Sequence record: PP047754
Length of the DNA stretch: 64,000 bases
Source of the DNA: Escherichia phage KEP4
Direction: 5' to 3' (one strand)
Shown here: piece after piece, positions 61,762-61,787 of the stretch
Position numbering within the stretch: the first letter of the stretch is position 1
How the letters are laid out: each line of letters opens with the position of its first letter
Translations under genes and position numbers: made by a program
Notes under the pieces: generated by a model
What the model saw: the letters and a program-made list of their open reading frames with translations, nothing else
What the model was told of the DNA's origin: nothing
Databases searched by the model: none

Positions 61762-61787
61762 GGATTCGATGCGCGCGCATCGAATCC
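61762..61787. repeat. perfect 26-bp palindrome GGATTCGATGCGCGCGCATCGAATCC
   Basis: Sequence equals its own reverse complement. Confidence 0.85.

Follow-up and report, generated by a model that had tools for sequence, protein, structure and literature searches.

The window, that is, the whole stretch of DNA analysed, comprises 64,000 nucleotides of Escherichia phage KEP4 (PP047754). Over its segment 60000-64000 it shows 100% identity to Salmonella phage SFP10 (Kuttervirus, Ackermannviridae), and hundreds of related genomes match there as well. All tRNAs identified in the window by ARAGORN and Rfam are encoded on the minus strand, and the features around the tRNA cluster are arranged as follows:

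60059 to 60037, minus strand: terminator-like hairpin after the tRNA cluster (terminator scan)
60285-60370, minus strand: tRNA-like gene with an expanded anticodon loop (ARAGORN, Rfam)
60374-60462, minus strand: tRNA-Ser (ARAGORN, Rfam)
61131-61206, minus strand: tRNA-Asn (ARAGORN, Rfam)
61620-61695, minus strand: tRNA-Met(CAT), the first canonical tRNA 3' of the tRNA-like element described below

Between tRNA-Met and the small gene SFP_0168 extends a region of ~2.26 kb (61696-63955) that contains no annotated feature, and the palindrome is located inside it. An ORF check over 61700-63950 found no credible ORF. A coding reading through the ORFs 61638-62027 on the plus strand and 61721-61939 on the minus strand was considered and dropped: the hairpin at the palindrome measures 24, 26, 27, 28 or 36 nt among relatives, and lengths ranging from 24 to 36 nt would shift any reading frame and break both of these.

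The palindrome, GGATTCGATGCGCGCGCATCGAATCC, occupies positions 61762-61787 and is perfect over its whole length, two 13-nt arms adjoining with no spacer, exactly as the earlier note had it. When all zero-spacer palindromes of the 64 kb are counted, it is the longest perfect one, with a half-length of 13 against 8 for the runner-up, and a half-length of at least 13 is reached in one of 200 dinucleotide-preserving shuffles of the window. The palindrome is real and beyond chance. It occurs once in the 64-kb window, even with three mismatches permitted. The distance to tRNA-Met is 66 nt, with the palindrome on the 5' side in the direction of tRNA transcription; its description as lying immediately upstream of the tRNA cluster is accurate in this transcriptional sense, on the minus strand, and in no other.

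A query of the 141 bases around the palindrome retrieves 187 phage records, of which all but one, labelled Pseudomonas phage, belong to Ackermannviridae. In an alignment that places SFP10 and Vi01 beside Shigella phage Ag3, Dickeya phage LIMEstone1 and Klebsiella phage PWKp5, a sharply bounded minus-strand block stands out; it is shared by four genera (Kuttervirus, Agtrevirus, Limestonevirus and Taipeivirus) and has the consensus GGGGCGAUAGUUUAAGGGA-[hairpin]-UCCYCAKAGAGAAC-R-GCUGG-(N)GGCCAA(N)-CCAGC-AGG-UGAGG-UGAAAAK-CCUCA-RACCCC-G-CCA. The block spans a predicted tRNA-like element, whose parts are, on the minus strand:

61702-61803, minus strand: predicted tRNA-like RNA gene of 102 nt, from the 5' G at 61803 to the 3' A of GCCA at 61702 (covariance model)
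61797-61803, minus strand: putative 5' acceptor strand GGGGCGA, G1-G4 presumed to pair with C69-C72
61791-61794, minus strand: 5' strand of the putative D-stem, GUUU (positions 10-13), following U8 A9, the same in all variants and presumed to pair with GAAC
61762-61787, minus strand: palindrome arm, element positions 17-42, projecting from the position of the D-loop
61751-61754, minus strand: 3' strand of the putative D-stem, GAAC (positions 50-53), closing a stem of 4 bp
61732-61749, minus strand: anticodon-like stem-loop, GCUGG / CCAGC around AGGCCAAU, in which GGCCAA is invariant
61712-61728, minus strand: T-arm UGAGG / CCUCA with the loop UGAAAAU, U54, A58 and G53-C61 being retained
61702-61711, minus strand: 3' acceptor strand GACCCC, discriminator G and encoded CCA, invariant in all variants
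61696-61701, minus strand: AU-rich spacer AAUUUU, 6 nt, separating the element from tRNA-Met

The first 15 nt of the element read like the start of a tRNA (7-nt acceptor strand, U8 A9, GUUU, A14), and the tRNA-type residues found along its length are U8, A14, the D-loop GG, G53-C61, U54 and A58. In the acceptor, position 5 is a C·A in most genomes and a U-A in S118 and Se-J, followed by G·G or G·A and then by A·A; RNAalifold favours GGCG/CGCC as the closing helix, the T helix being extended and bulged, over the GGGG/CCCC acceptor. As RNA, the palindrome arm forms an 11-bp stem (12 bp with G16·U43) capped by a GCGC tetraloop, and the predicted energy of this hairpin in the window allele is -19 to -20 kcal/mol. 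The anticodon-like loop consists of AGGCCAAU or CGGCCAAA (8 nt), or of GGCCAA (6 nt) with an A-U or G-C closing pair; it contains no U33, position 33 being a G. Genomes differ in the sixth pair of the anticodon stem, which may be A-U or G-C, and the GG32 stem contains a U·G. A plus-strand terminator-like call at 61732-61749 was rejected as a wrong-strand reading of this stem. A 3-nt connector, AGG, leads from the anticodon-like stem to the T-stem, in whose loop (UGAAAAU or UGAAAAG across variants) G and A replace Psi55 and C56; with UGAAAAK as T-loop, the Psi55-C56 that docks G18-G19 is missing. The length of the AAUUUU spacer is typical for members of a tRNA operon, and a role as a processing site may be inferred.

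All helices except the hairpin are invariant and consequently carry no covariation support. Only when its threshold is lowered to 60% and the hairpin is taken out of the sequence in silico does ARAGORN produce a cloverleaf, with acceptor, D, anticodon and T arms, a GCCA end and a four-base 'anticodon'. On the native sequence the element is not called by ARAGORN in default, intron, relaxed (80% of threshold) or mitochondrial modes, and Rfam 15, with its tRNA and tmRNA models included, gives no match over 61702-61803 at E<=1. The element looks like a degenerate tRNA, and its modelled fold appears to be tRNA-derived.

The element minus its hairpin, a 76-nt core, was used as a blastn query. Its identity is 97-100% in most of the 186 records retrieved and at least 95% in 114 of them, with Dickeya and Klebsiella phages at 98.7%. 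Every full-length core match spans 100-103 nt, which means that the hairpin is present in each copy; an insertion-free ancestor or paralogue was found in none of the 186 matches of the hairpin-deleted core. Relative to SFP10, the flanking coding DNA of Ag3, LIMEstone1 and PWKp5 is 73-74% identical, and in the same comparison tRNA-Met reaches 83-89% and tRNA-Asn 90-96%. Given these tRNA identities, the core is at least as constrained as the neighbouring real tRNAs. The annotation of the matching records at this position is 'none', 'hypothetical protein' or the adjacent tRNA, and never an RNA gene.

A covariance model was built from 12 distinct variants and searched on the window and 13 loci. 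It finds exactly one copy per genome, that of the window running from 61803 to 61702 with 118 bits; no paralogue is detected in the window or the 13 loci, and no match in CBA120 or in the tRNA region of T4. Exact ends, a covariance model and numerous natural variants thus define the candidate RNA, which goes unreported by every annotation pipeline. It is encoded in ~186 sequenced genomes of Ackermannviridae, several of which belong to phages used for biocontrol or therapy. Beyond these, IMG/VR holds it in 8-13 contigs, nearly all of genome length and from the same phage group, JGI metagenomes in one contig, and GTDB bacterial genomes in none.

The neighbours of the element differ from phage to phage. 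It follows tRNA-Ser(tga) in Ag3 and tRNA-Met in PWKp5, where the upstream tRNA ends ~6-10 nt before it, a tRNA-like spacing; in SFP10 its 5' neighbour is another non-coding module. tRNA-Met does not come after the element in Ag3, PWKp5, LIMEstone1 and others, so that the element travels with its own conserved flanks rather than with tRNA-Met. This arrangement speaks against the proposal that the hairpin is a cis signal for tRNA-Met, be it a terminator or attenuator, a hairpin protecting the 5' end of the tRNA precursor, or a site processed by RNase III or RNase E. Its position 66 nt 5' of tRNA-Met on the same strand suits such a signal, and a perfect RNA helix of 12 bp could be a substrate of RNase III. 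However, tRNA-Met is not downstream in the phages just named, the shorter, interrupted stem of most relatives makes a poor RNase III site, and a U-tract is missing on both strands. An intrinsic terminator was rejected on this last ground: the sequence after the hairpin is CUCAUAGAG in minus-strand and CUUAAACUA in plus-strand reading, and the terminator scan makes no call. A promoter reading was likewise rejected on the promoter scan. A cis-acting role for tRNA-Met is accordingly rated very improbable. Of the proposal that the palindrome encodes a hairpin at the 5' end of the tRNA precursor, what stands is an RNA stem-loop on the tRNA-coding strand; a processing or leader role for tRNA-Met does not, the stem being instead an internal arm of a separate, predicted 102-nt tRNA-like RNA.

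Among related records that match the 4-kb region (335), 186-187 carry the element and ~45% are without it. In CBA120 an HNH homing endonuclease gene exactly replaces it, between tRNA-Met and the next conserved module, and HNH endonuclease genes are found in or beside the locus in CBA120, SS3/SS9, STP07 and others. Since CBA120 and several other phages are viable without the element, it is dispensable under laboratory conditions. CBA120-type genomes represent natural knock-outs, and together with the natural stem variants they make the function of the element directly testable.

The hairpin itself is the variable part of the element. Written as minus-strand RNA, with the two arms separated by a slash, its forms are:

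Vi01, EP75 and many others: GGGAU-A-GCUGUCC / GGACAGC-GA-GUCCC, imperfect, the form of most genomes
LIMEstone1: GCCGUCC / GGACGGU, imperfect
PWKp5: GCUGUCC / GGACGGC, imperfect
Ag3: GUUGUCC / GGACAGC, imperfect
fGh-Ecl02: GCUGUCC / GGACAGU, imperfect
SJ3: GGGAC…, partly perfected
Mooltan: GGGACUCGCUGUCC / GGACAGCGAGUCCC, perfect, 28 nt, apparently a Vi01-type form perfected independently
3384-D8: GGGAU-A-GAUGUGC / GCACAUC-GA-AUCCC, intermediate, with a new SFP10-like apex on the old imperfect base
GG32 and moki: GGAUUCGAUGUGC / GCACAUCGAAUCC, perfect, 26 nt, one symmetric pair away from SFP10
SFP10: GGAUUCGAUGCGC / GCGCAUCGAAUCC, perfect, 26 nt
SeHz-1: the SFP10 form minus one central GC, perfect, 24 nt
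S115: the GG32 form plus a symmetric 10-nt duplication, perfect, 36 nt

Five Kuttervirus lineages thus carry distinct perfect palindromes of 24, 26, 26, 28 and 36 nt at one site, and the perfected arm of SFP10/GG32 type is present in ~20 of 186 records. In relatives, then, the hairpin is kept (186 genomes) and the palindromic sequence itself varies, which is how the conservation check called for by the earlier note turns out. The likeness of the palindrome halves to tRNA T-loops is a mere resemblance: GGAU/AUCC forms the conserved base of the hairpin, and UUCGA is restricted to the SFP10-like lineage. CGAAUCC is already present in the 3' arm of Ag3-type hairpins, and the 5' arm gains UUCG only upon perfecting. 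The element's own T-arm lies elsewhere, at 61712-61728, outside the palindrome.

In an alignment of 12 sequences, both-sided changes are seen at four of 11 hairpin pairs. Paired cells amount to 93%; offsetting the partners by 1-3 columns lowers this to 30-55%, and the observed covariation score is reached by none of 500 shuffles. Pair 20-39 is U-A, U·G or C-G, pair 23-36 is G-C or G·U, pair 24-35 is C-G, U·G or A-U, and pair 25-34 is U-A, U·G or C-G. Wobbles on the minus strand (G·U or U·G) occur at these four stem pairs, and A·C at none. Each such G·U would read as C·A on the opposite strand; hence it is the minus-strand RNA, of the same strand as the tRNAs, whose pairing is constrained. In this alignment, the sequence of the arm is free to change while pairing is maintained. 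Predicted stem energies are about -9 to -14 kcal/mol for the imperfect forms and -15 to -30 kcal/mol for the perfect ones.

These variants bear directly on the possibility that the palindrome is a site at the DNA level, namely a cruciform, an operator bound by a dimeric protein, or the site recognised by the HNH homing endonuclease that occupies the locus in other phages. The dyad is perfect with zero spacer, its centre is self-complementary in every variant (CCGG, GCGC, CGCG, CAUG), the HNH gene of CBA120 takes the place of precisely the element segment, and the combination of a hypervariable apex with ultra-conserved flanks could reflect escape from an endonuclease. Yet the half-site is not conserved even inside Kuttervirus, most genera have an imperfect repeat with an asymmetric A/GA internal loop, and the G·U positions are mismatches in one DNA strand. 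An operator, as the earlier note had suggested, is not supported, on three points: one copy per 64 kb at three mismatches, a varying half-site, and no adjacent promoter-like site in the scan. A sequence-specific site for a dimer would show the reverse of what is seen among relatives, where the sequence is replaced and the pairing alone retained. The cruciform put forward in the same place is physically within reach of the DNA, but nothing demands it; the inverted repeat is imperfect in most relatives, and a GC-rich palindrome centre disfavours cruciform extrusion. Taken together, a DNA-level site is judged highly unlikely. An RNA tetraloop does not need a self-complementary centre, and for this reason, as well as for the HNH replacement, a constraint at the level of DNA or of a dimer retains some, if low, probability. 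A dispersed repeat of REP or MITE type was also considered and rejected: each hairpin core occurs once per locus or window, and IMG/VR contigs contain the SFP10-type palindrome nowhere else.

A further explanation dispenses with function altogether. Here the element is a dead tRNA gene with a palindromic insertion, the hairpin is functionless, the core allele has been spread by homing-endonuclease traffic, and the symmetry is a mutational by-product. Acceptor, anticodon loop and T-loop are indeed all non-canonical, the element is missing from ~45% of related genomes, the HNH genes named above are at hand, and template switching alone can generate perfect palindromes. The distribution of changes within the element is at odds with this explanation. 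For a core with 0-2 changes to surround a 26-nt hairpin with ~10, in the same 102 nt, the core must be under purifying selection. Recent horizontal transfer might make the block as a whole more alike, but is insufficient to account for a near-invariant core enclosing a variable hairpin. Pairing in the stem is moreover kept via strand-specific G·U intermediates, and the adjacent non-coding modules exceed genes in conservation and show covariation. A dead gene is considered unlikely.

The element is best described as a phage tRNA-like small RNA of which the palindrome forms one arm. By function and setting, the closest known RNAs are the species 1 and 2 RNAs of T4 (rnaC and rnaD), to which, to our knowledge, no function has been assigned for decades, stable as they are. 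Both are small non-tRNA RNAs (~120-140 nt in T4) encoded beside true tRNAs on the tRNA strand; they have a tRNA-like 3' part, with a GGGUUCGAAUCCC T-arm in rnaC, and a homing endonuclease gene (segB) is part of the T4 cluster. In contrast, sequence similarity is absent, the covariance model finding nothing at the T4 locus and inspection by eye revealing none, and the architecture differs: the RNA of the window keeps a four-arm cloverleaf outline with a hairpin in the D-loop.

With canonical tRNA (RF00005) the element shares the order of the arms, U8, a 4-bp D-stem and 5-bp anticodon-type and T-stems; it also encodes NCCA and sits among the closely spaced genes of a tRNA operon. It departs from it in the acceptor stem, with 4-5 Watson-Crick pairs instead of 7 bp, and in the anticodon loop, which is not the 7-nt loop with U33 and purine 37. 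Nor would the T-loop dock to an open D-loop, the D-loop being occupied by a 26-nt helix; Rfam, ARAGORN and the depositors' tRNAscan-SE runs all miss the element. The tRNA-like domain of tmRNA is expected to have G3·U70 and a GGUUCGAxUCC T-arm, whereas the element has G3-C70 and UGAAAAU. For these reasons, the element was rejected as the tRNA-like domain of a nearby tmRNA-tag-like module. Mycobacteriophage DS6A encodes a relative of tmRNA reduced to the tRNA-like domain, likewise a phage-encoded, non-decoding tRNA mimic, which has been proposed to titrate the host factor SmpB; a further parallel is the presence of a tmRNA-tag-like module in the SFP10 island. The element differs from the DS6A RNA in G3-C70, in a T-loop unlike that of tmRNA, in its anticodon-type arm and in having no Rfam tmRNA match.

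In the preferred reading, the palindrome is probably a structural arm of a conserved, unannotated tRNA-like RNA, and its symmetry a product of quasi-palindrome correction. The palindrome would be the DNA image of an RNA hairpin, an extension of the D-loop in a tRNA-derived RNA of 102 nt whose gene is on the minus strand. The element would be transcribed within a long minus-strand non-coding precursor that also carries the phage tRNAs; the promoter scan gives no promoter-like site from 63385 up to the element. The 5' end of the element, at the G, would be made by RNase P. At the 3' end, a cut in the AAUUUU spacer, or the RNase P cut at tRNA-Met, would be followed by trimming to the encoded GCCA, and a stable, non-decoding RNA would accumulate. 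The literature on Ackermannviridae phages yielded no expression, end-mapping or structure-probing data, and that on non-coding RNA, transcriptomes and tmRNA of Ackermannviridae and Kuttervirus nothing relevant; transcription, processing and stability of the element RNA are what we infer from its sequence.

A loop of 6-8 nt without U33, a T-loop without the residues for D-loop docking and an acceptor with 4-5 Watson-Crick pairs would together make decoding impossible, and a non-decoding RNA of this kind is most likely a stable tRNA mimic. A partner would recognise its invariant parts, namely the acceptor end, the GGCCAA loop and the T-arm. The arm would serve as a structural extension in place of the contact between D-loop and T-loop, and as such would need only to be a helix. 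Its perfect dyad symmetry would have no function of its own, changes in one arm being copied into the other by template switching. A role as a tRNA mimic or decoy is a guess that fits current ideas on phage tRNA loci: these clusters are increasingly viewed as loci of counter-defence and translation control, and their non-tRNA RNAs lack an explanation.

As to the origin of the symmetry, an imperfect inverted repeat is common to four genera, and the perfect forms occur within Kuttervirus. By this distribution, the imperfect repeat appears to be ancestral and the perfect symmetry a recent peculiarity of the phage lineage. Perfect dyads seem to have arisen at least twice, in Mooltan from a Vi01-type hairpin and in the GG32/SFP10 group from a D8-type one. 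In both perfectings, the 5' arm became the exact complement of the 3' arm, GGGAU-A-G… turning into GGGACUCG… or GGAUUCG…. Later changes keep the symmetry: a paired U-A becomes C-G between GG32 and SFP10, a central GC is lost in SeHz-1, and the unit duplicated symmetrically in S115 is itself palindromic.

Template switching within quasi-palindromes during replication was first described in phage T4, and the work of Ripley and of Lovett reportedly established, for T4 rII and E. coli, that it corrects quasi-palindromes. The pattern at the present locus agrees with this process in its imperfect ancestor, its single site, its symmetry-preserving changes, and its five perfect forms with one intermediate. 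As at the hotspots of T4 rII and E. coli, imperfect repeats become perfect when the changes of one arm are complemented in the other, and symmetric deletions and duplications (24, 26, 28 and 36 nt) appear independently in several lineages; those hotspots are of laboratory mutations, whereas the variation here is natural and found among phage isolates. The perfect symmetry would accordingly be a template-switch correction of a quasi-palindrome, on an RNA stem under selection. Selection for a stable RNA stem probably contributes to the symmetry as well, and as template switching is superimposed on it, the two causes are inseparable by sequence alone. The series at this one site, from imperfect forms through perfect ones of 24, 26, 26, 28 and 36 nt, is an unusually clean natural record of the perfecting and expansion of a quasi-palindrome.

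A variant of the preferred reading, rather unlikely in our estimate, keeps the tRNA-like RNA and adds a pressure on the arm. The element would be a functional tRNA mimic in a phage 'translation-mimic' RNA island, with the arm under diversifying, pairing-preserving pressure. This pressure might come from the HNH homing endonuclease, if the DNA of the arm were its target and changes escaped cleavage with the stem being kept. It might also come from RNA, if the self-complementary apex and the GGCC loop mediated RNA-RNA dimerisation or the capture of a host tRNA-targeting factor. A cofold prediction favours the dimer, but it does so for any palindromic hairpin at standard state and is not counted as evidence.

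The 2.26-kb island around the element is modular and exceeds the genes around it in conservation. Immediately 5' of the element, at ~61810-62017 on the minus strand, a predicted multibranched RNA of ~208 nt is closed by an 11-bp stem and shows compensatory changes at nine pairs; several more anticodon-less, tRNA-like RNAs lie further 5' of this module. From 63250 to 63205 runs a tmRNA-like tag frame, ANDNTFLAVA with two stop codons, in an upstream context that is also tmRNA-like. The 181 nt around it match 616 phage records by blastn, none of which annotates an RNA there. Although its amino acids vary, the 10-codon tag frame is conserved across Ackermannviridae, Felixounavirus, N4-like phages and 46-kb Klebsiella phages.

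The 2.26 kb located 5' of tRNA-Met on the tRNA strand form an island that is assembled from modules, each of them present, missing or reordered from phage to phage. Between Ackermannviridae genera, the island is better conserved than the genes flanking it: the stretch 61806-62034 shares 97% identity with Shigella phage Ag3, compared with 74% for coding DNA. Its principal parts, as they lie in SFP10 (the Salmonella phage to which 60000-64000 of the window is identical), are:

61696-63955: the island, unannotated and without ORFs
63330-63150, minus strand: tmRNA-like mRNA domain, from sequence reading; tag frame 63240→63205
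~61810-62017, minus strand: multibranched RNA module of about 208 nt, predicted fold
62012-62103, 62476-62610 and 63292-63374: three long inverted repeats (arms 20-25 bp, spacers 39-92 nt)

The tmRNA-tag-like module may be more worthy of attention than the perfect 26-base palindrome at 61762-61787. In E. coli tmRNA, AAAAAAUAGUC precedes GCA AAC GAC…, coding for ANDENYALAA. Set beside it, SFP10 reads CAAAAAUAAUC followed by GCU AAU GAU AAC ACG UUC CUG GCA GUA GCU UAA UAG, a frame encoding ANDNTFLAVA and then two stops. The frame of 10 codons is kept across phages with both amino-acid and synonymous differences, and the variants ANDNAYLAVA, ANDDVVLMAA, ANDSEVLMAA, ANDNVFLAVA and ANEEMYLAVA are read from Ackermannviridae, Felixounavirus Alf5, N4-like Pollock and the 46-kb Klebsiella phage BUCT541. 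In blastn, the 181-nt tag region matches 616 phage records, none of which carries an RNA annotation there. The Rfam tmRNA models reach only 14-30 bits on the module, under threshold, and no published account of such a phage module was found in the literature. A promoter-like TTGWCA-N17-TATAGT, seen by eye, lies 5' of the module in SFP10, Alf5 and the Klebsiella phage PWKp5, and the SFP10 site is also picked up by a promoter scan. Directly 5' of the module, the inverted repeat 63292-63374 forms a long helix. The Felix-like phages and those of 46 kb show no evident tRNA-like domain attached to the module. At the three inverted repeats, Rfam matches to microRNA precursors were rejected as spurious, and no others occur there.

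Besides the tRNA-like element (the conserved 102-nt RNA gene whose hairpin arm is the palindrome), the region holds four more unannotated tRNA-like RNAs, the last a candidate, in which an acceptor stem is combined with a canonical UUCGAxU T-arm and the anticodon arm is missing, as well as one tRNA-shaped gene:

63496-63430, minus strand: GGUGAGG…GGUUCGAUUCCGCAC-CCUCGCC-A
63087-63017, minus strand: 3' end CUCCAAU-C-CCA; a GAAA tetraloop on a 7-bp stem takes the place of the anticodon arm
63014-62890, minus strand: 125 nt, long internal hairpin, 3' end AACGGC-U-CCA
60274-60125, minus strand: candidate, 150 nt, GAGUGUG…CGCACUC
60285-60370, minus strand: tRNA-shaped gene, 48.7 bits with the Rfam tRNA model

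In the tRNA-shaped gene, 22 nt stand in place of the 9 central positions of the anticodon arm. The gene is labelled 'tRNA-OTHER' (pseudo) in the SFP10 annotation, and the intron mode of ARAGORN interprets it as a tRNA-Pro that carries an insert of 15 nt.

The multibranched module adjoins the tRNA-like element directly on its 5' side. Its predicted fold is closed by an 11-bp stem, UGUGUCCAACC/GGUUGGUCACA, and among 8 phages compensatory changes occur at 9 of the 58 predicted pairs; no Rfam family corresponds to it. The equivalent island of PWKp5 scores 51.6 bits with STnc100, an sRNA family of Rfam whose gathering threshold is 47; the match is partial in Ag3 and missing in SFP10.

The relatives concerned carry these features:

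PWKp5 locus, 3786-4000, minus strand: STnc100 match (Rfam)
CBA120 locus, 7720-8133: HNH homing endonuclease gene orf221, corresponding to window 61696-61815

In CBA120-type phages, orf221 sits exactly where the tRNA-like element would be. Its 3' end overlaps tRNA-Met there, and the anticodon stem of this tRNA also differs, by compensatory changes. In phage Vi01, an additional segment of ~95 bp adjoins the tRNA-like element and carries, inverted, sequence that lies upstream of the CBA120 HNH gene.
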